Positions 13,479-57,196 of a stretch of 64,000 nt of DNA are shown here, piece by piece (the first letter of the stretch is position 1; every line of letters starts with the position of its first letter). Source of the DNA: an uncultured delta proteobacterium (lineage in GTDB: Bacteria; Desulfobacterota; Desulfomonilia; Desulfomonilales; Desulfomonilaceae); assembly GCA_963789265.1 (NCBI GenBank), contig CAWBKB010000008.1, positions 32,001-96,000 of the forward strand. The letters are read 5' to 3'. The translations under genes were made by a program, and so were the position numbers. The notes beneath the pieces are model-generated. The model saw only the letters and a list, made by a program, of their open reading frames with translations, searched no databases and had not been told where the DNA came from.

Positions 13479-14144
13479 GTAGGGTGGGCATCTTGCCCGC
13501 CGATTACTATACGCATTGCCAAAAGTTTTGTCCGATTAGAGGTAGCCTGACACCGTCATTCCTGCGGGGGCCGGAATCCAGTCTTTTCAATCCCGCGTTC
13601 CTCGCGGGACTGGACCCCGGCCTTCGCCGGGGTGACGGGTGGTGAACAGGTCATTACTTTTTGCAACGGCTAGATGTTTCCTCGTTCCCGGGCTCTGCCC
13701 GCAAACTGCCTTTATTGTCCCCCTCGGGGAATGGGAGAAAAACCCTCGCCTTCAGGCGAAGACTTCAGTGCGTACCCATTGTACATGTGTGGCACAAGAT
13801 ACAAAGATGGCATTAGGATGCTGGTGAGCGCAGCGAACCGCATCGCTCGCGGTTTTTTCTCGATTGATGCGGTTCCCCCGCGCAGAACGCGGGCTCACCA
13901 GCATCCTAGGCCGATATCGACTCCGGTCCTCTGGCGGCAGCGACCGCCGGATTCATCCGGGGGAGCGAAAATGCCGCCGAAGCCACCGCCTTCAGGCGGT
14001 GGAGCCTTCACTTCGCTATCATAGTCGAGGCAGAGCCTCGCAATAGGCATTCGCAGGCAGTCCCGCGAGACGCGGGACTTTGAACGAGAGATCCGGAACT
14101 CAGAGGCACGATTTCAAGTGAATTTTCAATTTTGAGACAGTCTC
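13479..14144. repeat. Dense cluster of palindromic repeats plus an orphan IS1182-like end
   Basis: gtcattcctgcg.../ccccggccttcgccggggtgac, ctcgttcccgggctctgccc.../gaggcagagcctc, ccaccgccttcaggcggtgg, ttttgagacagtctc at 14130-14144. Confidence 0.7.
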
Positions 14145-14258
14145 TTCAGCCCCGGGCTGCCATGATGCCTCGATTTCGACCCATTCCGTACTTTTGGGAT
14201 AATTTTATCCTGCCCGCCATTGACTATAGATTTTTCTCCGGGCTCTAACAAAAAAGAC

Positions 14259-14308
14259 TTGACAAAAATTCGAGGTCTGAGTACGTTAATTGTTAACGTT
14301 TAAACAAT
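14259..14308 (+). promoter_or_regulatory. Sigma70 promoter with downstream palindromic operator
   Basis: TTGACA (14259-14264), 17 nt, TACGTT (14282-14287), then ATTGTTAACGTTTAAACAAT (14289-14308). Confidence 0.7.
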
Positions 14309-14428
14309 CAAAATATAAACAACTTGGCCCCTGCTTAAAAGGTCCCCTCTGGTGCCGAGCCGAGTGAACTCCTGACCCACAATGACACGGACTTATTCGC
14401 CAAATATTTGGAGAAATGGAGGTCAACA

Positions 14429-15886
14429 GTGAGTATAAAGTCGAAACTGTCTGAAATCGTCGGGCCTGAAAACTTCTCCGATGATCCTGGTCAGTTGCAG
14501 GTCTACGCGACCGATTTCAGCTATTATCGTGCTGGGGCTCCCAATTATGTCGTGAAGCCGTCAACTTCCCAAGAAGTTGCCGAGATTGTCAAATTCTGCA
14601 ACGAAAAAAAACTACCCGTGGTACCGTGCAGTTCCACGGTCCATTTCTACGGAGCCACAATTCCCAAGGAAGGGGGAGTAGTCCTGGACCTGTCCAGGCT
14701 GGATAATATCCTGGAAATCGATCGCGACAATCGTCGGGTGAGATTTGAGGCAGGCGTCACATGGGACAAGCTTACCAAAGAACTCAAGAAAGAGGGCTAC
14801 AGGGTGATCATGCCCTTGACGCCCCCTGCGCAGCGATCCGTGCTCACCGATTTCCTGGAGCGAGAAGAGCCCACCAACCAGGTGTACGACTATGGCGAGC
14901 CTCTCCAGGCCATGGAAGTGGTGTGGCCTACCGGCGAGATCTTCAGAATGGGCTCGGCAAGCGTCAACGGGTATCCTGATTCTCCATCAAAAGGCGGGAA
15001 TCCGTCAGGCCCGGGACTTGATTTTTATCGTTTTTTCCAATGCGCTCAGGGGACCATGGGGGTCGTGACCTGGACCAATTTGAAGATCGAATCCATCCCC
15101 AAGATGGACAAGACCCTCTTCGCGGCGATTGACAATCTCGATTACGCAATGGATTTTCTCCATCGGATTCTGCCCCGAAGGATCGGCCAGGAAATTCTTT
15201 TGTTGAATCGTGTGAATCTGGCTGCGATCCTGGCTGAGAAGTGGCCCGAGGACTTTGATAAGCTGAAAGAAGCCTTGCCTGCTTGGACTTTGATTTTGGT
15301 ACTAAGCGGACTTCTGAGACGCCCGGAAGAAAAGATCGCTTATGAAGAGAATTTTCTCAATCAAGTGCTCAGGGACGAGTTCTCCAATATGAGGCTGGGT
15401 GAAAATTTGCCCGGTTTTCCCGGCCTGAGAAACAAGCTCCTGCCGATCCTGCGTAACCCCTGGCCTGTTGATTTGCCGCACTGGAAGAACCGGATCAAAG
15501 GAGCGTGCCAGAGTCTCTTCTTCCACACGCGGCCGTCCAAGGCTCAGCATTTCGTGACCAAAGTAAGAGAAATCGCCGGCCGATACGGCTATCCGGGCAG
15601 TGATATCGGCATATACATCCAGCCGATCGAACATAACCGAGCGTGCAGACCGGAGTTCAACTTCTTCTACGATCCTGCAAACGAGGCCGAGAAGACCAGC
15701 GTTCGAGCCCTCTACAAAGAGGCCGCCAAGGTGCTTTTGAGTGAAGGAGCCGTATTTACCAGGCCCTACGGTGACCTGGCCCCCATCGTTTATGAAAAGG
15801 CCGCCTCGTACGCGAGTCACCTGAAGCGGCTAAAGAAGGTATTTGATCCAAACAACATTATGAATCCTTCAAATCTGTGCTTCTGA
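14429..15886 (+). CDS. FAD-binding oxidoreductase (GlcD/VAO family)
   Basis: VVKPST.QEV..IVK, GGVVLDLSRL, EAGVTW, AQGTMGVVT, LKKVFDPNNIMNP; GTG start after GGAGG. Confidence 0.88.
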   Translation: MSIKSKLSEIVGPENFSDDPGQLQVYATDFSYYRAGAPNYVVKPSTSQEVAEIVKFCNEKKLPVVPCSSTVHFYGATIPKEGGVVLDLSRLDNILEIDRDNRRVRFEAGVTWDKLTKELKKEGYRVIMPLTPPAQRSVLTDFLEREEPTNQVYDYGEPLQAMEVVWPTGEIFRMGSASVNGYPDSPSKGGNPSGPGLDFYRFFQCAQGTMGVVTWTNLKIESIPKMDKTLFAAIDNLDYAMDFLHRILPRRIGQEILLLNRVNLAAILAEKWPEDFDKLKEALPAWTLILVLSGLLRRPEEKIAYEENFLNQVLRDEFSNMRLGENLPGFPGLRNKLLPILRNPWPVDLPHWKNRIKGACQSLFFHTRPSKAQHFVTKVREIAGRYGYPGSDIGIYIQPIEHNRACRPEFNFFYDPANEAEKTSVRALYKEAAKVLLSEGAVFTRPYGDLAPIVYEKAASYASHLKRLKKVFDPNNIMNPSNLCF

Positions 15887-15899
15887 GGAGGGAGAAACC

Positions 15900-17225
15900 A
15901 TGGCCGATGAAATGCCTGTCAGATATTACAAGCCCAAGACTGACTTCAAACTCGATGTCACGGATATACAAAATTTCGTCTACGACATGAGCCGATGCAT
16001 CAAATGCAAAGGTTGCACCTGGGTCGATCACACGTACATGCCGGGTCCGAAGTACATGACCCGTTGTCCCAGTGCAACGAAGTATGAGTTTGACGCTTAC
16101 GGGGCGTACGGAAAAATGCGCATCGGACATGCGATGGCTGAAGGGTTGCTCGACTGGAACGACAAAGCCCTGGAGGTTGTGTATGCCTGCACATTATGCG
16201 GAGCCTGCGATGTAGGGTGCAAGCGAAATTTGGATTTGGAAATCGAGCTTTCCCTGGAGTCGCTCAGAGTCAAGGCGGTCAAGGACGGTGTCGGTCCTAT
16301 GCCGGCCCACAGGAAGATCGCCGAGAACATCTCGAAGAGCCACAACATGTACGGCGCTTCGCACGAAAAGCGAACAAGCTGGATTCCCGAGGGGATAACC
16401 CCAGCCAAGAAAGCCGACCTGCTTTACTTTGTGGGCTGCACTGCATCGTACATAAACAAAGAAATCGCCCAGTCTACGGCAAAAATCTTCAAATCCGCGG
16501 GCACGCAATTCATGCTCATGCCGGATGAATGGTGTTGCGGCAACACGCTGTTTTCCGTGGGCATGTTCGATGAAGCCAAAGCCTTGGCTCAGCGAAACCT
16601 GGATGAAGTTCGGAAGACAGGCGCCAAAACCCTTCTCACAAGTTGCGCGGAAGGCTACCGCATGTGGAAGGTGGACTATCCGAAGCTCTTGAACATCTCC
16701 ACTGACGATCTGGGCTTCAAGGTGGTTCATCTGGTGGAATATGCAGACGAGATGATCAAGAGCGGCGCCCTGAAAATGAGAAAGCCGTTTGAAACTCGTC
16801 TGACTTATCACGATTCCTGTAGCCTCACCCGCTTGAGCGACCCCTGGACCCCTTATGAAGGAAAGCGAGGCTGGATGGGCTGTGTGGAACCAAGACTTCA
16901 AAGGAGGCGCGGGAACAGAGAGATATACGCCAAGCCCAGAGACATTCTGAAGGCCATTCCGGGCGTCGATCTTGTGGAAATGCCGAGGACCAGAGAAAAT
17001 GCCTTCTGTTGCGGCGCCGGACGAGGGACTCAGGAAGCCTATCCGGACTTCGCAAAGTGGGCCGCCGCGCATCGGTTGAAAGAGGTCAAGGATATAGGGG
17101 CCGAGACGCTGGTGTCCTCCTGTCCCTGGTGCAAAAACAATTTCGCCCAAGCCGTCAAAGCCGACGGCGATGATGTGCAGGTCCTGGATATTTCGGAAGT
17201 GATCTGCGCATCCATTGAAGGTTAG
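15900..17225 (+). CDS. Fe-S oxidoreductase with two CCG domains (GlcF/HdrD-like)
   Basis: CIKCKGC...CP, CTLCGACDVGC, FVGC, EWCCG, YHDSC, FCCGAG, SCPWC. Confidence 0.9.
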   Translation: MADEMPVRYYKPKTDFKLDVTDIQNFVYDMSRCIKCKGCTWVDHTYMPGPKYMTRCPSATKYEFDAYGAYGKMRIGHAMAEGLLDWNDKALEVVYACTLCGACDVGCKRNLDLEIELSLESLRVKAVKDGVGPMPAHRKIAENISKSHNMYGASHEKRTSWIPEGITPAKKADLLYFVGCTASYINKEIAQSTAKIFKSAGTQFMLMPDEWCCGNTLFSVGMFDEAKALAQRNLDEVRKTGAKTLLTSCAEGYRMWKVDYPKLLNISTDDLGFKVVHLVEYADEMIKSGALKMRKPFETRLTYHDSCSLTRLSDPWTPYEGKRGWMGCVEPRLQRRRGNREIYAKPRDILKAIPGVDLVEMPRTRENAFCCGAGRGTQEAYPDFAKWAAAHRLKEVKDIGAETLVSSCPWCKNNFAQAVKADGDDVQVLDISEVICASIEG

Positions 17226-17240
17226 GCTGGGAGGTAAGTT

Positions 17241-18842: not shown

Positions 18843-18889
18843 GAGAGCGACTGGAGCATTGGCCGGAAATTGTGGCGCCGATGAGCCAT

Positions 18890-20400: not shown

Positions 20401-21984
20401 ATGACCGGGAGCAAATGGGTCCACGTGGGCACTGTCTTGAAAATGAATGCCATCAACTACCCTATGAAATTGGGATGGCAGGATACCAAGAGGGAATTCA
20501 CGTTCAAGGAATGGAACGAGAAATCCAATCGTTTTGCAAACGGTCTGGAAGGCTTGGGAATAGGTTTCAAAGATACTTTCGCGGTCATTTCCTACAACCG
20601 TGGGGAATGGATGGACATATATGCCGGTTGTGCAAAGGGCGGCCAAGTGATCGTTCCTGTCATGTTTCGTTTGGCAGGGCCCGAAATTGAGTACATCGTA
20701 AATCACTCGGAATGCAAAGGATTTATCGTTGAGGCCCCTTTTGTGGAATTGATAGATTCAATCAAAGACAGACTTACCGTTCCCAAGAATTCATATATAT
20801 ATCTCGGAGATGGCCCACCGCCCGAAGGATACGTGGGGTATGAAGAGCTTCTGGAAAGGTCTTCACCAGATGAGCCGGATCGCACGGTGAGCGGAGATGA
20901 TGTCTGGAACATCATGTACACTTCGGGGACTACCGGCCGTCCCAAAGGTGTGGTGCGAACCCATGAAAGTCATTTGGCCCATTACGTGTTGAGCAACATC
21001 AACATGGGCGTACGGCCAAGTGACAAAGTGATGCTCGTCATGCCCATGTGTCATGTCAATTCCATACAATATTCATTCCCATACACGCTGGTTACGGCCC
21101 CGGTGTTCGTGTACAACACGATAAGCTTCGATCCTGAAGACTTCCTGCGGGTAGTCGATAAACATAAAATCGTCTTTACGTCATTGGTTCCCACGCATTA
21201 CCGGATGATTCTGGATTTGCCGGACCACATTAAGGCGAAATGGGACGTCTCATCTGTTCGGCAACTGCTGATATCCTCCGCGCCCGCAAGCAAAGAGCTT
21301 AAGCTTGCCATCATGGACTATTTCAAGAATGCGGAACTTTGGGAGGCTTACGGGAGCACCGAAGGAGGATTGGCCACACTGCTGAGGCCGGAAGACCAAT
21401 TAACGAAACTCGGCTCCATCGGCAAAGAAATTTTCGGCACAGATCGAATCAAGCTTCTGGATGCGGATCGAAATGAGGTCCCGGACGGAGAAGTTGGAGA
21501 ACTGTTTTACCGGGCACCCTGCGTTTTCAAAGAATATTTCAAGGATCCGCAGAAGACCGAGGAAGCGTTCCACGGAACGTGGTTTTCTGCCGGAGACCTG
21601 GCAAGACGTGACGAGGACGGCTATTACACGCTGGTTGACAGGAAAGCCAACATGATCATTACAGGAGGCGAAAACGTCTATCCTTCGGAAGTGGAGGGCG
21701 TGCTTCAGTGCCATGAAGCTGTCAAGCAAGTAGCTGTGATCGGAGTGCCGGATAACAAATGGGGCGAAGCGATCAAGGCGGTGGTGGTGCTCAATGACGG
21801 ATTTGAACCAAGCGAGTCCTTGGCCCAGGGCCTTGTGGATTTTGCCCGAGGAAGAATCGCCGGATACAAGCGCCCGAAGAGCATTGACTTCGTAAGAGAT
21901 GCGGAGATGCCAAAAACAGCGACCGGCAAGATCCTCCATAGAGTGCTCAAGAGTCGCTATACAGGTCTCAATCGTGGAAGCTGA
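20401..21984 (+). CDS. Acyl-CoA synthetase (AMP-forming)
   Basis: MYTSGTTGRPKG, YGSTE, GDLA, DRK..MIITGGENVYP, PKTATGKI. Confidence 0.93.
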   Translation: MTGSKWVHVGTVLKMNAINYPMKLGWQDTKREFTFKEWNEKSNRFANGLEGLGIGFKDTFAVISYNRGEWMDIYAGCAKGGQVIVPVMFRLAGPEIEYIVNHSECKGFIVEAPFVELIDSIKDRLTVPKNSYIYLGDGPPPEGYVGYEELLERSSPDEPDRTVSGDDVWNIMYTSGTTGRPKGVVRTHESHLAHYVLSNINMGVRPSDKVMLVMPMCHVNSIQYSFPYTLVTAPVFVYNTISFDPEDFLRVVDKHKIVFTSLVPTHYRMILDLPDHIKAKWDVSSVRQLLISSAPASKELKLAIMDYFKNAELWEAYGSTEGGLATLLRPEDQLTKLGSIGKEIFGTDRIKLLDADRNEVPDGEVGELFYRAPCVFKEYFKDPQKTEEAFHGTWFSAGDLARRDEDGYYTLVDRKANMIITGGENVYPSEVEGVLQCHEAVKQVAVIGVPDNKWGEAIKAVVVLNDGFEPSESLAQGLVDFARGRIAGYKRPKSIDFVRDAEMPKTATGKILHRVLKSRYTGLNRGS

Positions 21985-23381: not shown

Positions 23382-23463
23382 TGTCATTGCGAGGAGTGAA
23401 ACGACGAAGCAATCTATTTCTGTTGATTTAGAGATTGCCACGGGCTTACGCCCTCGCAATGAC
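23382..23463. repeat. gtcattgcgag...ctcgcaatgac palindromic repeat
   Basis: Inverted ends; related copies near 39598, 49866 and 50440-50520. Confidence 0.75.
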
Positions 23464-24918: not shown

Positions 24919-24940
24919 CGCGTACGGAAAGGAAAGAACC

Positions 24941-29496: not shown

Positions 29497-31138
29497 CTAG
29501 GTCTCGGTACGCTTTTGCTCTTCGGCACGGATTTCTCGCCGAAGTAGTTTTCCCACTTTTGATTTGGGCAGCATGTCTCTAAATTCTATGTATTGTGGTA
29601 TCTTGTATTGAACCAGCTTCTCCTTGCACCAACGTAACAGTTCATAACCCGTAATCCCTTTCACATCTTTCTTGAGGACTACGAAAGCTTTTATGCGCTG
29701 TCCCACCTTGGGATCGGGCACTCCCACCACACATGATTCGATCACTGCCGGGTGTTCCTGAAGGACCGCTTCTATTTCGGACGCGGAGACCCGATAGCCT
29801 TTGTGTTTGATAGTATCGGCAGACCGGTCAACGAAATACAGAAATCCATTCTCATCTTGCTTGACGATGTCCGATGTTCGGTACCAGAGTCGTCCGTTTA
29901 TCTCGACAAATGAAGCTTTGGTTTCCTCCGGCTTGTTAAGATATGCTCTCACCATTCTGTCCGATGAGACCAGTAGTTCCCCGGGTTGCCCGATGTCAAC
30001 CGGATTGGTGCCGTCAGAATCGACAACCATGATCTGCTTGCTGGGCAGCTTCAAACCCATGGTCAGAGGAGGGATCTCCTTGCCCGCAGGGGCCATAACA
30101 ATTCCCCCGCACGTTTCGGTGGCACCGTAACCTTGAACGATATCGATTCCGAAGCGTTTCTTCCAGCGATTCGAGACTTCCAAGGGAAGGACGTCTCCAC
30201 CTGAAAAGCAGTACTTCAACGGAGAAAGGTCGTATTGGTCACCTCGGACGTGCTCTAAAACCATTCGATAAAATGCAGGGACACCGATTATGCTCGTGGC
30301 TCTGTATCGCTGTATAGAGTCGAAGACCGCGTCGAGATTGACCCGAGGGCTCACCAGTATGGTGCCGCCGCCGACGATAATCGTGGACAGACTACATGTC
30401 TGTCCCAGAACGTGAAACAGCGGTGCACCACCCAGGATCACGTCCCGATCTTTGGGAAACAGTGGATCTCGCACCGAAAGCTGTTCTTCGGAAGAAACAA
30501 GGAATAATCCGTGTGAAATGGGAACACCTTTCGGGTGTTTGGTCGTTCCGCCGGTATACAGGATCTCTGCTGCGTCGTCTTTTCCCACGCCAGGTTCCGG
30601 AGCCGGAGGATGGGATTCGGAGAGCATGTCTTTCATCAAGCTGATGAAATCGGCCTGCTCTACTTTGCCCCTGGGGACTTTGTCCGCGATAAGTCCGAAT
30701 ACCCGTTTCCACATTGGGAGCAAGTCAGCCAAATTCGTTATGATAACCCGTTCGATTGAGGTGTTGGGCATGGAGCGCTTGACATAGCCGTAATTCCTGT
30801 CAGCGCATACAACAGCTTTTGCCCCCGTATCCGTAGCTATGTATTTGAGATCAGTATCGGTGTAAATAGGAGTGATGGGAACCGCAACTCCTCCCAATCT
30901 CTGAATCCCAAGCCATGCAACGACAAACTGGATCGAGTTGGGAATATACATCACGATACGATCACGCTCTTTCAGACCTACAGAAGCGAGAGATGCCGCG
31001 AACCGCTCGGCCATATTGAGCAGTTTTCGGTAAGAGGTACTTCGTGCCAAGAAACACCACAGCGGCCTTATTGGGGTACTTCTGCGCCATTGCCTCAAAG
31101 GCTTTGAAGATGGTGGGGTACTCCGGTTCCGACGTCAT
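29497..31138 (-). CDS. Long-chain acyl-CoA ligase family protein (frameshift near 31037)
   Basis: LYTGGTTKHPKG, GYGATE, PKSKVGKL; N-terminus MTSEPEYPTIFKAF from ATG 31138 (RBS GGAGGA) rejoins after removing one C. Confidence 0.88.
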
Positions 31139-36332: not shown

Positions 36333-37838
36333 TCATCCTCCATTTCCGACGGCGAATTGTTTCCTCAACTCTCGCTTTAGAATCTTGCCGGCCGCGCTCT
36401 TGGGCATTTCAGTCAGCATCACGTATTCTTTCGGGACCTTGAAAGGCGACAAGCGATCCTTCAAGTATAGCTTCATTTCTTCCGGAATGATTTCCCGCCC
36501 CGGCTGTGGTACGATAAAGACCACGACCCTTTCGCCCCACTCCTTGTCGGGAAGTCCTACAACCGCACATTCTTGCACATCGGCTACAGTATAAATGACT
36601 TCTTCCACTTCACGGGGGTACACGTTTTCTCCCCCCGTGATGATCATATCTTTGAGCCGATCCACAATGTAAAGGTACTCGTTCTCATCAAAAACACCAA
36701 TGTCCCCGGTTCGAAACCAGCCATTTTCCCAGAATGCATCTTCCGTTGCTTCCGGATTGTCCAGGTATCCCCTTAAAACGTTAGGTCCTCGGACACATAT
36801 CTCGCCTTCCTGCCCCTGTGCAACCCGATTCCCCCGGGTGTCTCTGATCTGCGCTTCCACACCGGCCACCGTCGTGCCTACCGAGCCGACAACGTGATGG
36901 TAATAGTGATTATATGTCACAGCGGTTGCCGTTTCAGTCATTCCGTAGCTTTCGTGGATCGTCAGACCGGTTTGTTCCTTCCACCGTCGAACTATTTCCG
37001 CTGCCATGCTTGCAGCCGCGGAGAAACTGTATCTAATTTTTCCCAGTTTCTCCTTGAGATTATCCACGGTAAGCAGACGGGCATAGATTGTCGGTACAGC
37101 GAAGAACTTTGTTGCCCGCCCCGCGCTCGTGAGTGCCAGGACCCGGTCCATATCGTAGTTCGGAAGAATCTCGACACATCCGCAGCTCAGGATAGTAGCA
37201 TTCATGATGTGTATCTGACCGAAGACATGGTTAAAAGGGAGAAAACACAGAGCGCGGTCCGTCTCCGATGAGCGCTCGTAATAGGCGACATTGTGACTGC
37301 CCGCGTTGATATTTTCGTGACTCAACATGACTCCCTTAGGAGTTCCGGTCGTACCGCCGGTGTAGAGTACCGCGGCGGTGTCTATGCGGTCTCTGTCCAC
37401 AGCCTTGAAAGATTCCGTCCCCATTTCAAGAAGTCGTGGCAGCGACAAATCGCCTTGCGGGCAGATAGTCTTTTCGATGCCCGCCGATGCCCGCAAGTTT
37501 TCCAGGCTATCGAGTTTGTCATCAGTGGTGAAAATAAATCTTGGCTTTGAGTGGTTGAGCAACAGAGCCAGTTCCTCGCCCCTGAGGAGACTGGACAATG
37601 TGATGGCAATAGCGCCCGCCTTGAGTACGCCAAAGTAGAAGCCAATCCAGTCGGCGGAATTAGCCGCGCATAGACCGATATGATCTCCGGCTTTAATTCC
37701 CATTCTCGTGAGCCCAGTGGCTATGCGATTGGCGCGGTTGTTGAGTTCCCCGTAAGTGATATCTGCCCCGCCTTCGCTCGCGGCCGGCCGGTCAGGGAAG
37801 AAAAGAGCCGACCGTTCCAAATTGCAGGACAAATTCAT
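36333..37838 (-). CDS. Acyl-CoA ligase (AMP-forming)
   Basis: LYTGGTTGTPKG, YGMTE, RTGDIG, PKSAAGKI; ATG 37838 after GGAG. Confidence 0.92.
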   Translation of the reverse strand: MNLSCNLERSALFFPDRPAASEGGADITYGELNNRANRIATGLTRMGIKAGDHIGLCAANSADWIGFYFGVLKAGAIAITLSSLLRGEELALLLNHSKPRFIFTTDDKLDSLENLRASAGIEKTICPQGDLSLPRLLEMGTESFKAVDRDRIDTAAVLYTGGTTGTPKGVMLSHENINAGSHNVAYYERSSETDRALCFLPFNHVFGQIHIMNATILSCGCVEILPNYDMDRVLALTSAGRATKFFAVPTIYARLLTVDNLKEKLGKIRYSFSAAASMAAEIVRRWKEQTGLTIHESYGMTETATAVTYNHYYHHVVGSVGTTVAGVEAQIRDTRGNRVAQGQEGEICVRGPNVLRGYLDNPEATEDAFWENGWFRTGDIGVFDENEYLYIVDRLKDMIITGGENVYPREVEEVIYTVADVQECAVVGLPDKEWGERVVVFIVPQPGREIIPEEMKLYLKDRLSPFKVPKEYVMLTEMPKSAAGKILKRELRKQFAVGNGG

Positions 37839-38077
37839 GCTCACTCCTCTGGAAGTGTCTTTTTGTCGCTTTTCGCCTGGTGGTGGGGCTGCTCCTTGGG
37901 GGGCTCCAACCACAGTGGCGGCCACATTCCAACACTTGAGTTCCCCCTCTCACGAGGCTGTGGGAGAGAGGCACTTCAATCAGGTCTGGGCGCCCGGCAC
38001 CCCTTGCTTCGTCGAGCGGAGCAAGGGGCGTTCTCGGAGGCTTCCCTATTCTGCGGCCGGGAACCGCACCCACCGAC

Positions 38078-39529: not shown

Positions 39530-39668
39530 GTTTTTTTTCTCCGCGTGAGGCAATCGTTCGCTGACGGCAACCATTCACTTTCGCGCGGGAAGAGATTGTC
39601 ATTGCGTGTCCCGCGTCTCGCTGGACGAAGCAATCTTTACCTCATACCGATTTGCTTTCAAACAAGTG

Positions 39669-39798: not shown

Positions 39799-41720
39799 GT
39801 GCGCCAGGCAAAGCTTGGCGTCTCTTACTGGGTGAGAGTCCCTGTCGGGTAAGGTCTAACCAGCCACCCGTATCGAGTGTTGCGGATATTTGGGAGGATG
39901 CAATTTAGAGCAAACGAACGAAATATCCGAAGCGTACACAGAGAATCTTGTGGGCGGCAAGGGAGGCCGCATCTCCCTGAAGCGATTCAGCCTCGTTACC
40001 GCTGAGCAGTCGGCGACGATGTTACCATATCGGAAGCCAGCATAGAGGGATCGTTATCGGTGAGATCCCCGAGGGGCTGCCGGGGTCAGAGAGCGTGGCA
40101 CGCAGGAAGAGAGATATTAGGAACCTGGGAGGCCCCCCGGTCTCCCTCGCAAGAGGGTAGGGTGTACCAACCAAAAGGAGGCCACCCGATGGGCCGAAGG
40201 GAGTCAGATCGCTCCATCGTACTCTGAGGCGGGAGAGCCGGCCACAAGGGGAAGGGAGCGACGAGGCCGCGTAGCCTGCAAAGGAAACACGAACCGAACA
40301 AGGAGGATCGGACCAAGCCGTGCAAACCTCACTGCGGGGAATAGCAAACAAGGCAGCCAAGCAACAGAAGCATCGATTCGGCAACCTCTACGAGTTGCTC
40401 AACGAGGAGAATCTACGATGGTGCTGGCAGTTTCTTCGGAAAGAGGCGGCACCGGGAATAGACAGAGTGGATTATGCCGAGTACCAGGCTGAGCTGGCCT
40501 CCAGTATCCATGACCTCGTTGGCCGCCTGAAGGGGAAGCGGTATCGAGCCAGATTGGTTCGTAGGCATTACATTCCCAAACTCAATGGGAAGCTTCGTCC
40601 GTTAGGGATACCGACTACTGAGGATAAGCTGCTGCAGCTTGCGGTAGCCAAGATCCTGGAGGCCATTTACGAGCAGGACTTTCTCGATTGCAGTTATGGG
40701 TATCGTCCGGGTCGCAGCCCGCTCGATGCGGTAAAGCACCTCACGGATGAGCTGCAATATGGGAGGTACTGTTGGATCGTGGAAGCGGACATCAAGGGGT
40801 TCTTCGACAACATCGACCATGATTGGATGATTCGGATGCTGGGAGAGCGAATTGATGACAAGTCGTTTCTGCGTCTGATTCAAAAATGGCTCAAGGCAGG
40901 TATCTTAGATACGGACGGAGAGGTGATCCATCCGGCCACGGGCACACCTCAAGGTGGGATCGTGTCGCCGATCTTGGCCAACCTCTACCTGCATTATGCT
41001 CTGGACCTATGGTTTGAGACAAAGATCAAACCGGCCTGTCAGGGCAGCGCTTTGCTCATCCGCTTTGCGGATGATTTTGTCTGTGCGTTTCAGGATCGGA
41101 AGGATGCCGAGCTGTTCATGGAAGAGCTCGAGGCACGCCTGGGCAAATTCGGCCTGGAAACCGCTCCGGACAAGACGCGGCTGTTGCGGTTTTGTCGGTA
41201 TGATTTAGCTGGGAGCGGCCGGTTCGATTTTCTTGGGTTTGAGTTTCGCTGGGAAGAAGGCCGCAACGGGGGCCGCTTTGTGAAGCGCCGCACTTCGCGT
41301 AAGAAGCTGCGGGCCTCGCTAGCCAACTTTACGGACTGGATCAAGAAGGAGTGCCACCGGAGGACCGGTCGACTTTTCTCCACCCTCAACTCCAAGTATC
41401 GCGGATACTGGAACTACTACGGGGTGTTGGGGAATTCGGCAAGCCTTCAGCGCTTCTTTTACATCACCCAGCGGCTTCTCTTCAAATGGCTGAATCGTCG
41501 CAGTCAGCGCCGTAGTTACACCTGGGTCGGATTCAACGCCCTGGTTAACTACTATGGGGTAGAGCAGCCACGCATCACCGAACGTGCCAGACCAGTGCAA
41601 TTGGCCCTTCTGTGATCGCTGTCAGTGCGGAAGCGAGCGGCCTTGAGGAGCCCGGTGCGGGAATAGCGCACGCCGGGATCTGTGAGGGGGCCGGCGGGCA
41701 ACCGGCGGTCCTACCTTGAT
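39799..41720 (+). mobile_element. Group II intron, apparently complete
   Basis: 5' GTGCG at 39799; domain V gagcccggtgcgggaatagcgcacgccgggatc; domain VI ending ctaccttgat at 41720; RT/maturase ORF inside. Confidence 0.92.
40320..41615 (+). CDS. ltrA: Group II intron reverse transcriptase/maturase without endonuclease domain
   Basis: APGID, LRPLGIP, SYGYRPGRS, ADIKGFFDNI, GTPQGG, RFADD, FDFLGF, domain X RGYWNYY; no HNH tail. Confidence 0.95.
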   Translation: MQTSLRGIANKAAKQQKHRFGNLYELLNEENLRWCWQFLRKEAAPGIDRVDYAEYQAELASSIHDLVGRLKGKRYRARLVRRHYIPKLNGKLRPLGIPTTEDKLLQLAVAKILEAIYEQDFLDCSYGYRPGRSPLDAVKHLTDELQYGRYCWIVEADIKGFFDNIDHDWMIRMLGERIDDKSFLRLIQKWLKAGILDTDGEVIHPATGTPQGGIVSPILANLYLHYALDLWFETKIKPACQGSALLIRFADDFVCAFQDRKDAELFMEELEARLGKFGLETAPDKTRLLRFCRYDLAGSGRFDFLGFEFRWEEGRNGGRFVKRRTSRKKLRASLANFTDWIKKECHRRTGRLFSTLNSKYRGYWNYYGVLGNSASLQRFFYITQRLLFKWLNRRSQRRSYTWVGFNALVNYYGVEQPRITERARPVQLALL

Positions 41721-41781: not shown

Positions 41782-42043
41782 GGTAGGGTGGCCCGTGGCC
41801 GCCGTCCCGCGCGTCGGGCATTCGCGTTAAGTTAAGGCAATTTCGTTCCTTTTCGGGAGGTCCGTGCAGGCCGAGCACGATCAAAGTCCCCCTTTTATAA
41901 AGGGGGATTTAGGGGGATTTTCAAGTAGTTATCCCAAAATCCCCCCTGGCCCCCCTTTACGAAAGGGGGGAACCCCCGCGTCTCGCCGGGTTAAGTTAAC
42001 GCCGTCCCGCGCGTCGGGGGATCGGGCATTGCCCGATCTACCC
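41782..42043. repeat. Nested palindromic repeats
   Basis: gccgtcccgcgcgtcggg at 41801 and 42001 flanks a gcgttaagttaa...ttaagttaacgc element containing the aaagtccccc...aagggggattt hairpin. Confidence 0.7.
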
Positions 42044-42052: not shown

Positions 42053-43507
42053 TCATCCCGTAAGGCATGGATGACGCGCAGCTTCCACCTCATCCATCCT
42101 TCTTACCTTGCATTTTGACGGAGCCCCGCGCAGAAGTTCCGGGTTTTCCTTTGCCTCCCTCGCAATCGCCTTCAATGCGTCAACAAACTGGTCCAAGTCC
42201 TCTTTTGATTCCGTCTCGGTCGGTTCAATCATTATCGCTCCGCTCACAACCAGCGGAAAGTAAATCGTCGGCGGATGATAACCGTAGTCCATGAGGCGCT
42301 TGGCAATATCCATGGTGCTGACTCCGCTCTCCTTCTGGAATTTGTCGGAAAATACGCACTCATGCATGCAAGGTCTGTCATACGGGAGATACAGCACGCC
42401 TTTGAGCTTCTCCTTTATGTAATTTGCATTCAGCACGGCAAGTTGGCTGGCCCTGGTCAGTTCACGGCCCATACTCAGTATGTAGCTGTAGGCCTTTATC
42501 ATGACCCCGAAGTTGCCGTAAAACGCATGCAGTTTCCCTATAGACTCCGGAAATTCCTCTGACAGCACGAACCCTTCCCTGGCCCGGATCACTCGAGGGA
42601 TCGGTAAGAACCGCTCCAGGCTCTTCTTTACGCAAATCGGTCCTGAACCCGGCCCACCGCTGCCGTGCGGCGTCGAAAAGGTCTTGTGCAAGTTCAGATG
42701 TTGAATATCAATCCCCATGTCACCCGAACTCACTATGCCCATAACCGCGTTCATATTTGCGCCGTCGCAATAGACAAGCCCGCCTCTTGAGTGAACTACT
42801 TCCGCTATTTCTCTTATGTTTTCTTCGAACAGGCCGAGCGTATTGGGATTTGTGACCATGATTCCGGCGACGTCGTCGTCCATGACACGGGCAATGGTTT
42901 CTGTGGATAGAATGCCCTGTTCGTTGGATTTCACATTTACGGGGCGAAATCCACAAAGGGCTGCACTGGCCGGATTGGTGCCGTGCGCAGTGTCCGGAAC
43001 TATGATTTTGGAGCGTGCTGAGCCCTTGCTCCTGTGATAAGCAGAAATGATGAGCATCCCGGCCAGTTCCCCTTGCGCGCCGGCAGCCGGTTGCACGGAG
43101 ACCGCGTCCATGCCGGTGATTTCCGCCAAAAGCCTCTCAAGATCGGAAATCAGTCTGAGGGCCCCTTGTGACAAAGGAGTCGGCAACAATGGATGTGCCG
43201 CGGCAAACCCCGGTCGGCTCGCTTGTTTCTCGTTGACCTTGGGGTTGTATTTCATGGTGCATGAGCCGAGAGGGTACATTCCGCTATCGACTCCAAAGTT
43301 CCACTGAGAGAGCCTGGTGTAGTGGCGAACTACCTCCACTTCGCTCAGGTCGGGGAAGTCCGGAGGCTCGCCAACAAGCTCCTCCGGCACCGGTGACTCC
43401 TCGACGTCTCGCCTCGGCAGGCTCATTCCGGATCTGCCTTTTCTTCCTCGCTCCCAGAGCAGCGGTTGGTCCAGTATCAATCCTGTGCGGCCCGGAAATT
43501 CTTTCAT
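42053..43507 (-). CDS. gcvPB: Glycine dehydrogenase (decarboxylating) subunit 2
   Basis: YPLGSCTMKYNP, HGTNPASA, HLNLHKTFSTPHG, MIEPTETE; start ATG 43507 (or 43516). Confidence 0.95.
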   Translation of the reverse strand: MKEFPGRTGLILDQPLLWERGRKGRSGMSLPRRDVEESPVPEELVGEPPDFPDLSEVEVVRHYTRLSQWNFGVDSGMYPLGSCTMKYNPKVNEKQASRPGFAAAHPLLPTPLSQGALRLISDLERLLAEITGMDAVSVQPAAGAQGELAGMLIISAYHRSKGSARSKIIVPDTAHGTNPASAALCGFRPVNVKSNEQGILSTETIARVMDDDVAGIMVTNPNTLGLFEENIREIAEVVHSRGGLVYCDGANMNAVMGIVSSGDMGIDIQHLNLHKTFSTPHGSGGPGSGPICVKKSLERFLPIPRVIRAREGFVLSEEFPESIGKLHAFYGNFGVMIKAYSYILSMGRELTRASQLAVLNANYIKEKLKGVLYLPYDRPCMHECVFSDKFQKESGVSTMDIAKRLMDYGYHPPTIYFPLVVSGAIMIEPTETESKEDLDQFVDALKAIAREAKENPELLRGAPSKCKVRRMDEVEAARHPCLTG

Positions 43508-43508
43508 T

Positions 43509-43630
43509 GTATGCATTCAGTTACAGCCGGAATTTGCGAGTGGCTTCGTAGGGTGGGCTTTCTAGCCCGCCATTGAACGGGAGTTTCCCCGGCAGGCTGG
43601 AAGGCCTGCCCCACAAGACTGAATGGTTAC
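43509..43630. mobile_element. 122-bp MITE with 8-bp target site duplication
   Basis: IRs gtatgcattcag / ctgaatggttac; CTTTCATT at 43501-43508 and 43631-43638. Confidence 0.85.
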
Positions 43631-43633
43631 CTT

Positions 43634-44965
43634 TCATTCGGTTATCTCCTTGACCAAAGCTTCCATGTCCGCCCTGGACCTGGTTTCGGTAACGCACAAC
43701 AGATAGTGATTGGGCAGTTCGGGATAGTAAGGGGCCAAAGAGATCCCGGCGATGATTCTTTTCTCCAGCAAACGTTGGTAAGTGAATTCAAATCCGGACG
43801 GAAATTCCACCACGAATTCGTTGAAGGTAGGACTGGAAAATGCCGGCTTCAAACCTGCTCTCGCAAGCCCTCGCTTGAGATACTCCGACTTGTCATAGTT
43901 CAGCTTAGCCAGTGCTCTTATTCCGGTTCCGCCGAGAGACGCCATGTACATGGCCGCGGCCAGAGCGCACAGGCTGCCGTTGGTGCAAATGTTGGACGTG
44001 GCTTTTTCCCTGCGGATGTGCTGCTCACGGGTGGCAAGAGTAAGCACGAATCCTCTCTCGCCGCCCATATCCTTTCCCAGACCCACAAGTCGCCCCGGCA
44101 TACTGCGCACATACTGCATATTGCTCGCGAACATGCCCAGTCCAGGGCCGCCGAAAGATTGGGGAATGCCGAAACTTTGGCCTTCTCCGCAAGCTATGTC
44201 CGCTCCTTGACTTCCCGGACTTTTGAGCAGGCCGTAAGCCAGAGGCTCGGAAAAGCAGACAACAAACAGTGCCCCTTTTCCATGAGCAATCTCACTATTC
44301 GGCTTAAGATCTTCGATACAACCGAAGAAATTCGGCGACTGAACCGCGACGGCTGCAAGTTCGTCATGTCCTCTCAGCCCTGAAAAGTCGGTCCTGCCGT
44401 CTTGCAGGTAATCAAGCTCCACCAACTCATAACCAGACGAGGAGAAATAGGTTTTGACCACCTGCCCGTAAAACGGATGGACCGCGCGAGATATTGCTAC
44501 TCTGTGTCGGCGGGTTATTCTTATGGCCATGAGCAGCGCTTCCGCCAGTGCAGAGGCGCCGTCATACAAAGATGCGTTGGCGGTTTCCATGCCAAGCAGC
44601 CTGGCCACAAGAGTCTGATACTCATAAATGGCCTGAAGCGTTCCTTGACTCATTTCCGGCTGGTACGGCGTATAAGCTGTTACGAATTCCGACCTCGCAA
44701 GCAGTTGAATCACCGATTCCGGAATATAGTGCTCGTAACTGCCCGCGCCTACAAAGACCTTGAAATCCGGAGATACTGCCATGCTAGCGGCCAGCGTCTC
44801 AAGATGATCCTTCAGTTCCCACTCTGTCATGGGTTCCGGGAGATTGAGGCCGCTCGTGCGGCGGCACCCCGGAGGAACGGTCGAGTGGAGGTCTTCCAGC
44901 GTCGCAACGCCTACGACCTCCAACATTTCCGCGATATCTTCCGCCGTGTGCGGCAAGTAACGCAT
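43634..44965 (-). CDS. gcvPA: Glycine dehydrogenase (decarboxylating) subunit 1
   Basis: MRYLPHT, TAYTPYQPE.SQG.LQ, NASLYDG, REQHIRREKATSNICTN. Confidence 0.96.
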   Translation of the reverse strand: MRYLPHTAEDIAEMLEVVGVATLEDLHSTVPPGCRRTSGLNLPEPMTEWELKDHLETLAASMAVSPDFKVFVGAGSYEHYIPESVIQLLARSEFVTAYTPYQPEMSQGTLQAIYEYQTLVARLLGMETANASLYDGASALAEALLMAIRITRRHRVAISRAVHPFYGQVVKTYFSSSGYELVELDYLQDGRTDFSGLRGHDELAAVAVQSPNFFGCIEDLKPNSEIAHGKGALFVVCFSEPLAYGLLKSPGSQGADIACGEGQSFGIPQSFGGPGLGMFASNMQYVRSMPGRLVGLGKDMGGERGFVLTLATREQHIRREKATSNICTNGSLCALAAAMYMASLGGTGIRALAKLNYDKSEYLKRGLARAGLKPAFSSPTFNEFVVEFPSGFEFTYQRLLEKRIIAGISLAPYYPELPNHYLLCVTETRSRADMEALVKEITE

Positions 44966-49800: not shown

Positions 49801-50580
49801 GCTATCAACTTGTCAACAGGTCGGGATCGGCAGCGTAACCATTCACTTACTAGCGGGAAGAGATTGTCATTGCGAGCCAAGCGAAGCAATCTTTTCCTTT
49901 AAACGCCGCTTAGATTGCCGGTGGGACGGGCATCTTGCCCGTCATCCCCAATGGCAGGCAGGATGCCTGCCCCACCATATCCTCGCGGGGATTGTCACTT
50001 GTTTGATGGCGCACTGGTATAACCTGTCAACAGGTCGGGATCGGCGGCAAAGATTCTGATTGACTGACCACATTGCCGTGAGTTACTCTCAACAAAAGCA
50101 CAAATTGGGCTCTTTCAGCAACGTGAAGATGGTTTTGATTTTCCCGGCTCTCCCCGCATAGGCAGTAACTTAGCCTCGTCGGACGCCGGATTCCCCTCTT
50201 TCGTGAGGGGGGGGAAGGGGGAGGATGACAACCGACCGAAATTGTAGACGACCCTTTGTTATTTTTACGCGTGTGGGGCAAGTGGGAATTTTGAGCTAAC
50301 CCGTTGAAAATCCCCTTAAATCCCCCTTTAAAAAGGGGAACTTTGATGGGCCTTGGCCCGTTGGACCTCTCAAGAAGTAACGAAATGCCCTTAGTACTAG
50401 ATTTCCCAAATACGGTGACGTTAAGCCGGTACGGAAGAAGATTGCTTTCCCGCGAGGCGCGGGACTCGCAATGACAGATAGTGGGAATGTCATTGCGAGG
50501 AGTGAAACGACGAAGCAATCTCCACCGTGAAAATGCGTGACCGGATTTATGAAACAGAGCAATTAGTTAGCGCCTATGGG
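49801..50580. repeat. Dense cluster of nested palindromic repeats
   Basis: Direct repeat tgtcaacaggtcgggatcggc near 49811 and 50025; gtcattgcgag, gacgggcatcttgcccgtc, tcccccttt..aagggg and ATACC-type ends. Confidence 0.7.
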
Positions 50581-51136: not shown

Positions 51137-51527
51137 ACAAAGCTTTCACGAGCATTCTCGCGTCCCAGTCGGGGTGGATCGTGTGACTTGCCCCCCGATG
51201 GTGGTTTCGGAAAAATGTCACCACAGAGGCACAGAGGTGCTCGGCGCACGGCCAAGATTCCTTGATAAGCATCGAGGCCCGTAGAGATTGGGGAGGTTAC
51301 TCGAACGAAGTATTTTTCTCGTTCCCAGTCCCGCGAGACGCGGGATTGGGAACCAGAACTCCAAGGGATGCCTTATTTTAACGCTTATCCCCATACGGGG
51401 GCATGACGGCATGTACGGCGCGGGTTTGAACCCCGCGCCGTACCATCTGACGGTTTTCTCTGGGCTCTCTGTGTCTCTGTGGTTAACTTTCTCTTTCTTT
51501 CAGTTCACCTCACCCACCAAAATAAAT

Positions 51528-53405: not shown

Positions 53406-53453
53406 CTTATGTGCAGTAGGGCGTCCCGCGAAGCGCGGGATTGCCCGCCGATG

Positions 53454-54479: not shown

Positions 54480-54493
54480 GATCTTCCCCCCTT

Positions 54494-55820
54494 CTACTGC
54501 GTTGCGCCGGAGATCGGCTCCGGAACCTTGCCTGCATACCTGGCGATCAAATAGAAGCAGCCTATCCCGAGCAAAGTGTAAATGATTACAAAGGCCGCCA
54601 GAGAGATGCCGACCTGGGAGTTAGCCAGTGTGGATGCGGCATCGCTGGTTTTCATCATGCCGTAAACTATCCACGGTTGCCGACCGACTTCGGTTACTGT
54701 CCAGCCGAGGGCAAGCGCTACATAAGGGAGCGGAATACAATACATCAACAGCCGAAGAAGCCCTGGGCTGTCTTCCGGATTGTTCCGCTTGAACCAGGCA
54801 ATAATGCTGACGATAACGAAAAAGATCCCGAGCGCCACCATCAGCCTGAAGGCCCAGAAGGTCGCGGCAACGGGCGGTCTCTCGTTTTTGGGCCATTCCT
54901 TGAGCCCTTTGTACACAGCATTCGCGTCACCGTAAGCAACCCAACTCAATAGCTTGGGTATCCCCAGAAACTGCACTGAGTTGCGCTCGTTAGCCTCATC
55001 GGGAATTTGGATCAAATACAACGGAGCGCCTGGCGTGGACTCCCAGAACCGCCTCAGTGGCCGCTGCCTTGGTCGGCTGGGCTTTTACCATCTCTTTGCC
55101 GTGGAAATCTCCTATCCCAAGTTCGGCGATAGAAAAGATTACAGCAAAAATGGCCGCCATCTTGAACGATTGCTTGAAAAATGGGACGTTTTGACGCCGA
55201 AGTAGATGATACGCGCATACGCCCATTACAAAGAACCCGGTTAGGATGTACGCTCCGCTTAACACGTGCAGAAACATCAAAAGAGCGTAACTCTGTGTAA
55301 TAACAGCCCAGAAATCGGCAAGCTCCGCACGACCGTTTCTGATTACATAGCCTACCGGGTGCTGCATCCAGGAGTTTGCCACCAGGATCCAATACGCGGA
55401 AAAATTCGAGGCGGCAACAACCAGCCAGATGCAAACCGCGTGAGCTTTCGGAGAAAGCTTATCCCAGCCGAATACCCACAAACCGATGAACGTGGATTCA
55501 AGGAAAAAGGCAACTGTAGCCTCTACCGCCAGTAGGGAACCGAAAATGTCCCCCACGTACTTGGAATATCGGGACCAGTTTGTACCGAATTGAAATTCCA
55601 GGGTTATGCCGGTAACCACTCCCAGAGCAAAATTGATGACTAACAACTTGCCCCAGTATTTGGCCATCTTTTTGTATTGTTCGTCCCCGGTACTTACATA
55701 TCGCGTCTCCATTATGGCAACTAGAATGGAAAGGCCCAGCGTAAGGGGAACGAATAGAAAATGGAAATAAGTTGCCACTGCAAATTGCAACCGGGAAAGT
55801 GTGACAGCGTCCATAGCCAT
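54494..55820 (-). CDS. cydA: Cytochrome bd quinol oxidase subunit I (frameshift near 55048, probably a sequencing error)
   Basis: LSRLQFA...FHFLFVPLT, EFQFGTNW, FFLESTF, QPTK.AA.E, GW..TEVGRQPW; removing one G gives EAFWESTPGAPLYL. Confidence 0.93.
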
Positions 55821-55846
55821 TTACCCCCTTGGTGGATTGACACCAT

Positions 55847-56344
55847 TTAATCAATCCTTTTGAACGTTGCTCCCTTTGAACCGCAAACCGGACAAACATC
55901 CGGAGCATGCTGTCCCACGGTGTACCCGCAGGATGGACACACATAATAGGAATAACTCTCCTGCGATGCTCCCAGACTGTCCAGGAGCTTGGTGTAAAGG
56001 CTCGCGTGGACTTTTTCCACTTCGTTAGCGTAGTTGAAGCTTCTCTCCGCGGCTTTATGCCCTGCGGCTTTGGCCGCTTCAATCATTCCGGGGTACATCT
56101 GTTTGAATTCGAACGTTTCACCGGCAATGGCCGCTTCAAGATTCTGGGTTGTGGTGCCGATTCCTTTGAGAGCTCTCAGGTGATTGTGCGCGTGGACGGT
56201 TTCTGCTTCTGCCGCTGCTCGAAACAGCTTGGCGGCCTGGGGATATCCTTCCTTATCCGCCTTTTCCGCAAAGGCGAGATACTTGCGATTAGCCTGTGAT
56301 TCCCCTGCAAACGCCTCTTTCAAGAATTGTTCTACTTCTTGCAT
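55847..56344 (-). CDS. rbr: Rubrerythrin
   Basis: AFAGESQANRKY, AETVHA, GETFE, EKVH, C-terminal CPSC...CPVC. Confidence 0.93.
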   Translation of the reverse strand: MQEVEQFLKEAFAGESQANRKYLAFAEKADKEGYPQAAKLFRAAAEAETVHAHNHLRALKGIGTTTQNLEAAIAGETFEFKQMYPGMIEAAKAAGHKAAERSFNYANEVEKVHASLYTKLLDSLGASQESYSYYVCPSCGYTVGQHAPDVCPVCGSKGATFKRID

Positions 56345-56587
56345 GACTCCCTGTTCCTCCTCGTTGTTGATAATTTGGTTTGATACGGACAAAATCCGCA
56401 TTTCATATTAAGAACGACAAGATCGGGGAAACATCCCTTGTTCAGGTTCCCCAAATCCGACCTGGAACCCCCAACATTCGCCTGCATCCTCATTTCTCCA
56501 TAAGATAAACGAGAATTTCAGCAATAGCCAAAAATTCTTGTAGATACGTCAAGGGAGGAACGTATTTGAAGACGTTCCTCCGCGACC

Positions 56588-56986
56588 TCAATTCTTCCTG
56601 AAACAATCAGGGCAAATTCCAGTGAATTCCATCCAGTGCGATACCACTTTGTACCCGCAGGATCTTTGGGCTGCCTTTTCGATCAGCGGGAAGGGCTCAA
56701 TATCGATGTCGTCCACTCTTCCGCATTCAATGCAGCGGATATGGTAATGATTTTCGGTTGTCCCGTCAAAGCGTCTCTGAGTACCGGCGAGGTCCATTTT
56801 CAGCACTATGCCTTCCGCGCTCAGGATTTCAAGGTTGCGATACACGGTGGCAATACTGATCTTCGGCAAGCGCCGGCGAACCAAGTGATGAAGGTCCTCG
56901 GCCGTAGGGTGACAGGTGACCTTCTTTAGCTCTTCCAGAATGATCCTACGCTGCTTAGTCATTCTACGTAATGGTTTCGAGTCCAT
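56588..56986 (-). CDS. perR: Fur-family regulator, PerR-like
   Basis: TKQR..IL, HPTA, ISIATVYRNL, RFD, HYHIRCIECG, GICPDC; lies upstream of rbr-cydAB. Confidence 0.8.
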   Translation of the reverse strand: MDSKPLRRMTKQRRIILEELKKVTCHPTAEDLHHLVRRRLPKISIATVYRNLEILSAEGIVLKMDLAGTQRRFDGTTENHYHIRCIECGRVDDIDIEPFPLIEKAAQRSCGYKVVSHWMEFTGICPDCFRKN

Positions 56987-57030
56987 AGCGGGATGTTGCG
57001 TTCCTGTTGCTATTGAGATGCAATATAAAT

Positions 57031-57060
57031 AAGCTAACCGAAGCTAGATTCTCATGTCAA
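57031..57060 (-). promoter_or_regulatory. Possible sigma70 promoter of perR
   Basis: TTGACA (57055-57060), 18 nt, TAGCTT (57031-57036). Confidence 0.45.
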
Positions 57061-57077
57061 GTCTTTTTTGCAACGAC

Positions 57078-57196
57078 TTGTATGCATTCAGTTACAACCG
57101 AAATTTGCGGGTGGCTTCGTGGGGTGGGCTTTCTAGCCCGCCATTGAACAGGGGTTTCCCCGGCAGGCTGTCCCGCGCCTCGCGGGACTGTCCCAC
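57078..57196. repeat. Second copy of the 43507-43614 element, carrying a 17-bp palindrome
   Basis: About 90 bp nearly identical to 43507-43599. Confidence 0.9.

Follow-up and report, generated by a model that had tools for sequence, protein, structure and literature searches.

In Neisseria, the repeat NTS has the 28-nt consensus CGTCATTCCCGCGMAVGCGGGAATCYRG, and its hairpin is bound, only in single-stranded DNA and only on one strand, by SsnA, a 94-aa GIY-YIG protein whose gene is itself flanked by NTS, as set out in the sections on SsnA in Chenal et al. 2025 (PMC11893778). According to the same sections, SsnA cleaves a few bases upstream of the hairpin, and the wider SRM pattern, HGTCWYN(0-2)YYVSBRHN(0-5)WNVSBRGN(0-2)RNCYNB, is defined by oriented GTCWY and RNCYNB tags that are required for Ssn cutting (PMC11893778). 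Here we describe a palindrome, P (TCCCGCG-N3-CGCGGGA, 17 bases; a variant with a 5-nt loop, N5, is counted with it), from a 64,000-nt stretch of DNA of an uncultured soil bacterium, hereafter the window, which covers positions 32001-96000 of contig C8 of assembly G000. The stem of P has the same 7-bp letters as the NTS core TTCCCGCG...GCGGGAA, with a loop one base longer, and P is hyper-abundant and intergenic, as NTS are in those sections. It lies within an SRM-pattern match in only 1 of 146 N3 copies and none of 51 N5 copies, however, and does not flank an ssn-type gene on both sides. P is also found inside the loops of other repeats, a location in which the sections on NTS describe no copies. 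We propose, with a probability of about 0.5, that P is a secondary occupant of the hairpin tips of other repeats, gained by non-duplicative replacement and then spread together with its host.

P also resembles repetitive extragenic palindromic (REP) sequences, bacterial interspersed mosaic elements and REPINs in being a short, extragenic, high-copy palindrome that occurs in mosaics with other repeats, going by the passages on these elements in PMC3116915 and PMC3733652. REPs are regularly nested in other palindromes, an example being GTAG-23 in CCGSSCC(n3,4)GGSSCGG, in the account of such nesting by Di Nocera et al. 2013 (PMC3733652). Relative to that account the nesting is reversed in G000, where the untagged mini-palindrome P lies within the REP loop and host bases are replaced. 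P bears neither a GTAG nor a CGTC tag (its flanks read C-N-R and Y-K-G), and the GTAG seen around it belongs to the host REPs. Nor does P flank any of the six candidate genes for a REP-associated tyrosine transposase (RAYT).

A second parallel is offered by SDR4-6, repeat modules of about 20 nt that are proposed to be mobile in Nostocaceae; SDR5 is precisely inserted in the palindrome HIP1, between bases 3 and 4, as the relevant passages of PMC4390886 and PMC5861425 report. P is an equally very small nested module (17-19 bp), but differs from the modules in those passages in sequence and phylum, in replacing host bases, and in its tie to an NTS-type hairpin family. SDR5 is also said to lie inside larger repeats, without target duplication, in work by Elhai et al. 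from 2008. The neisserial unit dRS3 is quoted in PMC11893778 as the 20-bp ATTCCC-N8-GGGAAT. Set against that quoted unit, the TCCC and GGGA arms of N3 P are 9 nt apart and its A/T flanks are not conserved, while the 2-nt-loop (N2) form, in its GTCAT...ATCC context, fits. In the mosaic elements of Neisseria, copies of dRS3 and NTS lie between the individual units.

P is carried within a true 122-nt miniature inverted-repeat transposable element (MITE), but is itself only 17-19 bp long, makes no target duplication and, its own stem apart, lacks terminal inverted repeats. Among the 15 N2 copies, 11 fit the SRM pattern and are true NTS-type units. P works like the small nested repeat modules of a few lineages, and lacks the defining features of SRM, REP/RAYT, MITE and dRS3. 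A full-text literature search returned no tagless NTS-core palindrome occupying the loops of many repeat families; Elhai et al. 2008 lay outside that search.

Abundance and setting of the palindrome

G000 is a metagenome-derived assembly of 6.06 Mb in 9 contigs with 52.5% G+C, 95.6% complete with 6% contamination, and its gene calls are crude. The window holds seven copies of P at no more than one mismatch, five of them exact; shuffled windows average 0.03 and none of 100 reaches seven. All of the copies named in the original prediction, which took P for a candidate mobile element on the evidence of this window, are real, including the N5 variant at 13591-13609 and the one-mismatch copy at 39609-39625. 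The excess extends to the whole genome: exact P with a 3-nt loop occurs 146 times, against 0.17 expected if its half-sites (990 and 1017 copies) paired independently. A further 51 exact copies have a 5-nt loop, 15 a 2-nt loop, 3 a 4-nt loop and 2 a 6-nt loop. Other permutations of the heptamer (n=104) give at most 8 palindromes each across the genome, and P is its commonest hairpin with a 7-bp stem, although many other hairpin repeat families are present.

Decayed copies are plentiful. At 0, 1 and 2 stem mismatches the genome contains 146, 135 and 184 N3 copies (0, 1 and 13 in the reversed genome) and 51, 59 and 78 N5 copies (0, 0 and 25 in the reversed genome), which brings the P-derived copies to about 600, with mismatches at every position. 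The loops of P are purine-rich on one strand (AGA, GGA, AGG, GAA, AAG), and the N5 form is a CG-expanded P whose loops are mostly CG or AG, then GAA. No Rfam 15 family matches any P copy of the window at its gathering score.

P is lineage-specific. It is present in all six genus relatives, at 41-93 copies, and in 13 of the 18 family genomes, and absent from all 12 sister-family genomes, the reversed control pattern giving 0 throughout. Among 300 genomes sampled evenly from the phylum, only three have at least 15 copies: two members of its own family, with 85 and 15, and one other genome, with 16.

The predicted intergenic position of P holds across the genome: 60 of the 217 exact copies fall within open reading frames (ORFs) from crude longest-ORF calls, compared with 81% coding sequence. 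The ORFs concerned are mostly short frames over repeat clusters, or have P at their end, and neither the four longest P-overlapping ORFs genome-wide nor the short window ORFs that overlap P at 50448, 51329 and 57171 match a Pfam family. P resides almost only within other repeats, since both 30-nt flanks are repeated in 161 of the 217 copies, one in 46 and neither in 10. Clustering by flanks groups the 217 copies into 69 contexts, which are mutually related and not independent. The densest cluster, 9 copies in C7:412.7-420.4 kb, surrounds two small GIY-YIG genes.

Filled and empty host hairpins

Each context was searched for its empty form by looking across the whole genome for its two 9-nt flanks with a gap of up to 45 nt or, in a second search of 63 contexts, up to 14 nt. 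In more than 20 host families P is the minority form, most members having a short loop of their own. Thus the flanks GTGGGACG and TTGCCCGTC enclose the native filler GGCATC in 112 empty copies and P in 10; AGATTGCTT and TTTCACTCC enclose CGTCG in 61 and P in 7; GTAGGACCG and TTGCCGGTC enclose GCATC in 50 and P in 6; and GACAGGCTG and CTGTCCCAC enclose GAAGC in 71 and P in 13. For about 28 of the 63 contexts the empty form has at least 3 copies, in which both flanks are contiguous, and P takes the place of 3-10 nt of filler. Among the hosts are REPs tagged with GTAG, hairpins flanking small GIY-YIG genes, a MITE, in whose internal hairpin P sits, and inverted hairpin doublets, where P is at the centre.

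The empty forms are perfect hairpins, and P replaces the loop together with 2-4 nt of one arm. Because P breaks the host's own palindrome, the filled state is the derived one. Simple deletion of P cannot restore the empty form, as the filled form lacks those 2-4 nt. No target duplication is found at any surveyed P junction, and host bases are removed. Claims of the original prediction are upheld by these results: P substitutes into unrelated repeat families (69 contexts for 217 copies, with empty counterparts for about 28), and it does so by replacing host bases without target duplication at the surveyed junctions. In the window, P, its hosts and their empty counterparts are distributed as follows.

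13555-13636, minus strand: two inverted SRM-type hairpins with the N5 copy (13591-13609) between them; one of 13 copies in a family that, when empty, reads AACATA where P sits.
14061-14077, plus strand: exact P, loop AGA, purine-rich on the plus strand, in the context GGCAG-P-CTTTG at 14056-14082.
23383-23414, plus strand: empty copy of the hairpin family found at 39598-39635; a second empty copy lies at 50489-50520.
39598-39635, minus strand: GIY-YIG-associated hairpin GTCATTGCG...GAAGCAATC, in which a decayed P with one mismatch (39609-39625) replaces the central 13 nt.
42005-42021, strand unassigned: P-like copy with one mismatch, absent from the original prediction.
43509-43630, plus strand: empty 122-nt MITE with terminal inverted repeats and the native loop GAAGGC in its internal hairpin, bounded by the 8-bp target duplication CTTTCATT at 43501-43508 and 43631-43638.
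50439-50475, plus strand: GIY-YIG-associated hairpin with P at 50448-50464, loop AGG, and a junction offset unlike that of the 39598 copy.
51320-51354, plus strand: hairpin GGTTCCCAG...TTGGGAACC with P at its tip (51329-51345, loop AGA); the segment 51305-51370 folds with P at the apex (15-bp stem, -18.2 kcal/mol, z = -5.05).
53416-53449, plus strand: GTAG-tagged REP with P in its loop (53424-53440, loop AAG), placed after a gene and before that gene's terminator; in three genus relatives the syntenic site lacks the unit entirely.
57080-57213, plus strand: left part of the 122-nt MITE with P (57171-57187, loop CCT on the plus strand) in place of its loop; beyond P a different repeat family follows, making the copy a chimera.

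Two filled and empty pairs had been proposed within the window. The hairpin at 39598-39635 and its empty counterpart at 23383-23414 form a genuine pair. The MITE copies at 43509-43630 and 57080-57213 do represent empty and filled forms, but the latter is a chimera rather than a pure twin.

Across the genome the 122-nt MITE, with the inverted ends GTATGCATTCAG...CTGAATGGTTAC, has 46 copies, of which 25 are filled with P, 13 retain the native loop and 8 are other variants. The composite of MITE and P transposes as a unit, since filled copies have 8-bp target duplications of their own.

Other hosts point to repeated acquisition. In the GIY-YIG-associated hairpin family GTCATTGCGAG...GAAGCAATC, P occurs at no fewer than 5 junction offsets with varied loops (contexts 6, 16, 18, 27 and 58), two of these offsets being those at 39598 and 50439 in the window, and in REP families with different stems the offsets of P differ by one or two bases (contexts 5 and 13). 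The presence of several junction offsets within one host family means that acquisition was repeated; in our reading, P was gained on some 20 separate occasions or more. Another genus, represented by genome G015 with its 99 P copies, yielded 13 contexts from 15 sampled loci; 7 of these have no counterpart in G000 and 6 resemble G000 contexts, with at most 3 differences in 18 flank bases. The independence of the junctions argues for P moving by itself and not merely riding on its hosts. A second, unrelated mini-palindrome, TCACGCC-CG-GGCGTGA, is present in 15 copies in one REP family, at the junction between GGGACAG and TTGCCTGTC (for example C1:164726 and C1:611391). Its place at a P-type junction suggests that the tip of a host hairpin is a preferred place of exchange.

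With one representative taken per context, the 69 contexts show a flank preference of C-N-R before P and Y-K-G after it. The first flanking pair is G..T in 19 contexts and T..G in none, an asymmetry that fits a single-strand form whose structure is read on one strand. Flanks pair across P by at least 5 bp in 43 of the 69 contexts, compared with 116 of 300 mixed controls.

Proposed routes to the hairpin tip

The data above show that P is abundant, nested in other repeats, found in filled and empty states with the filled one derived, joined to its hosts at multiple junctions, carried along by them, subject to decay and specific to a lineage. They also show non-duplicative replacement at hairpin tips, many times over. 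For the replacement itself we infer, as most likely, a single-strand step, copying from a donor and, possibly, an enzyme. The target hairpin would fold in single-stranded DNA, and its tip would be broken or would stall replication there. A 3' end would then lose a few arm bases and copy P from a different hairpin that bears it, with the help of 1-3 nt of microhomology of the kind seen in the C-N-R and Y-K-G flanks, before the copied end returned to the other arm. Such an exchange could be copy-choice (template switching) or break-initiated conversion, and an Ssn-type or other structure-specific nuclease could start it. Once gained, P spreads passively with the host element and decays neutrally, and it also serves as a breakpoint at which halves of different repeats are fused.

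The spread of very short bacterial palindromic repeats is largely unsolved, and candidate enzymes exist only for REP/RAYT and now NTS/Ssn. P provides an unusually clean natural experiment, in that more than 20 unrelated families of hairpins exist both empty and filled with a single 17-bp palindrome; the junctions are defined, a strand asymmetry is seen, and the sequence is tied to NTS/Ssn. Replacement at hairpin tips thereby becomes open to direct tests that need only oligonucleotides and a few small proteins. The layering of repeat in repeat in MITE also matters for the annotation and assembly of such genomes.

Several observations weigh against the proposed explanation of P. No gain or loss of P was seen at an orthologous site, in relatives that are about 79% identical to G000 in genes and lack the host repeat there; at two syntenic sites (left of 53454 and right of 57073) the host repeat is wholly absent in three relatives. 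Since loops are nearly uniform within families such as the MITE (AGG in 21 of 24 copies of that context), most copies stem from the amplification of a few composites and not from separate P events. The 6 of 13 junctions that are common to G015 and G000 could be old inherited composites. P lies in unique DNA in only 10 of 217 copies and may be unable to move without host repeats. Pairs of P bracket only unrelated housekeeping ORFs, such as acyl-CoA-synthetase-like paralogues, and no cis-encoded enzyme. Finally, the polarity of arm truncation is a trend among interrelated contexts and not a rule: with the purine-rich loop on top, 7 contexts (43 copies) have lost bases of the 5' arm and 3 contexts (4 copies) bases of the 3' arm.

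The alternative that survives best, though we consider it somewhat unlikely, treats P as a passive module of mosaic clusters that acts as a recombination hotspot, similar to dRS3. A few composites would have arisen by rare illegitimate events, new contexts would come from deletion or recombination between P copies with small junction indels, and copy number would reflect host mobility alone. Chimeric contexts, in which the left and right flanks come from different families (the 57171 copy and contexts 33, 36, 38 and 42), would be explained by deletion or recombination between two P copies. The uniform loops within families, the MITE that bears P with target duplications, the repeats on both sides of P in 161 of 217 copies, and the density of P in repeat-rich regions such as C7:412.7-420.4 kb, with its 9 copies, all agree with passive carriage. 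What it does not accommodate are the approximately 28 contexts that match a contiguous empty element and in which P takes the exact place of the 3-10-nt filler: recombination at P sites between different elements cannot make contexts whose two flanks belong to one empty element. The several junction offsets per host family and the lineage-specific contexts of the other genus likewise speak against it and for replacement at the hairpin tip.

A more ambitious version of tip replacement, which we judge unlikely, makes P an ultra-small non-autonomous element that homes into hairpin tips, an Ssn-type or other structure-specific nuclease cutting the target and the gap being filled by copying P. If true, P would be a parasite of parasites, and Ssn nucleases would gain a role in the spread of repeats. 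A search of G000 for GIY-YIG found five small genes and one match in a 619-aa frame, which is presumably uvrC. Hairpins of the NTS, GTCATTGCGAG or GTCAYCCCGG type flank the five small genes, among which are those at C7:413401-413688 and C7:55813-56136: three of one subtype have GTCATTGCGAG-type hairpins on both sides, in G000 and in three relatives; a pseudogene lies among GTCAYCCCGG-type hairpins; and a 95-aa single-domain gene at C7:415055-415340 has about ten NTS-type hairpins of the form GTCGTCATTCCCGCG-YA-CGCGGGAATCCAG on both sides. Within C7:412600-416000 two small GIY-YIG genes lie 1.4 kb apart, each within its own hairpin family, and this segment is, by the look of its genes and hairpins, an NTS/Ssn module. 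The published NTS consensus has 6 exact matches in the genome (0 in the reversed control), two of them beside the C7:415055-415340 gene, and the degenerate SRM pattern has 225 (28 in the control). A CRISPR reading of the units spaced at 67-68 bp at C7:415.5 kb was rejected, the units being NTS-type hairpins around the GIY-YIG gene. NCBIfam has no family for the small GIY-YIG proteins, and the sole sequence match in the Protein Data Bank (PDB) is a weak one to UPF0213.

The P stem itself also ties the palindrome to this module. An NTS-type family with the P stem occurs in 9 of 31 genomes, all of them P-bearing and including every genome with at least 41 copies of P (related genomes that are not independent), and in none of the 17 P-free genomes, and P looks like a derivative of the NTS-type core. 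Copies of P with loops of 3-6 nt are found near only the two GIY-YIG genes of the C7 cluster, without bracketing them. No Ssn-like gene was found at E <= 1e-8 in G001 (81 P copies, 88% complete), G002 (49, 84%), G004 (93, 76%) or G006 (66, 94%), and one is present in the P-free G012 and G016 and in 3 of the 12 sister-family genomes, so that the gene is not tightly coupled to P across relatives. For this reason, and because P is without NTS tags, its link to an Ssn-like nuclease is weak.

Decidedly unlikely, in our view, is that P is a selected functional site, whether a protein-binding hairpin, a target for an Ssn-like nuclease acting against incoming single-stranded DNA, or a stabiliser of hairpins or cruciforms. 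P does add about 6 kcal/mol to the MITE hairpin, which folds at -8.8 kcal/mol when empty and at -14.8 or -15.5 kcal/mol when filled, and its stem has exactly the letters of the NTS-type hairpin to which Ssn nucleases of other bacteria bind, as far as the sections on NTS in PMC11893778 describe it. Within filled MITE copies P has diverged at 10 of 425 positions, compared with 167 of 2750 in the rest of the element; however, 20% of MITE windows of that length match or exceed P in conservation, and P is not exceptionally conserved there. The hundreds of decayed copies, with mismatches at every position, and the failure of the SRM pattern to fit more than 1 of 146 N3 and 0 of 51 N5 copies are equally hard to reconcile with selection. 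Orientation relative to neighbouring genes is unbiased (47 same, 43 opposite), and the spread of P over tandem, convergent and divergent spacers roughly tracks spacer length, with only a mild enrichment in convergent ones; no conservation of position is seen between species. The contigs are without clear replichores, their GC skew tracking gene orientation.

The enzyme named in the original prediction, a RAYT/IS200-type HUH Y1 transposase that would excise and insert P as single-stranded DNA, is very improbable: six loci in the genome match the Y1_Tnp profile, two of them flanked by GACAGGCA-type and ACCGGCA-type REPs of kinds that, GTAG-tagged, host P elsewhere, and the absence of target duplication and the strand asymmetry would suit single-strand transposition, but none of the six, whose flanks are P-free REPs, has P or a pair of its half-sites within 1.5 kb, P carries neither of the tags GTAG and CGTC, and at P junctions the host has lost bases. 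Insertion by IS200/IS605 HUH enzymes, next to a target tetranucleotide, is not known to remove host bases. It is the hosts of P that look RAYT-driven. At the RAYT-like loci L005 (C3:99734-99973) and L004 (C7:408888-409172), tandem GACAGGCA-type or ACCGGCA-type REPs stand directly beside the gene, and these translate as repeated RQDAGPT-like peptides in spurious ORFs.

Soil reads and neighbouring features

Public reads from two soil runs of one study cover parts of the window at low depth. One X1 contig and one X2 contig, both of low depth, span 53424-53440 without differences, and no indel is listed at any P site in the partial cover by these two runs. The joints listed for the runs are short-sided and look like repeat cross-matches.

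Just before the one-mismatch copy at 42005-42021, positions 41935-41990 hold another repeat family, in which a CCCCCCTTTACGAAAGGGGGG hairpin is followed by a hairpin of the CCCCGCG-N3-CGCGGG type, a one-letter variant of P; hairpins with the CCCCGCG stem number 35 genome-wide. A group II intron (Rfam group-II-D1D4-6, 124 bits) at 39835-40095 on the plus strand begins roughly 200 nt beyond the hairpin at 39598-39635 that holds P. It is followed on the same strand by an ORF at 40320-41615 that matches RVT_1 (E 2e-37), with a GIIM maturase domain scoring 19.4 bits, under the 23-bit cut-off. Three genes of about 530 aa, at 20401-21984, 29497-31098 and 36333-37925, are paralogous to each other and to genes at C1:1848094-1849689 and C1:1558999-1560672, with 26-33% mutual identity. 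Their N-termini resemble AMP-binding acyl-CoA synthetases, and they are ordinary genes, not transposases. Finally, the window contains a match to the small RNA Acido-Lenti-1 at 8842-8888 on the plus strand (40.2 bits, against a gathering score of 37).

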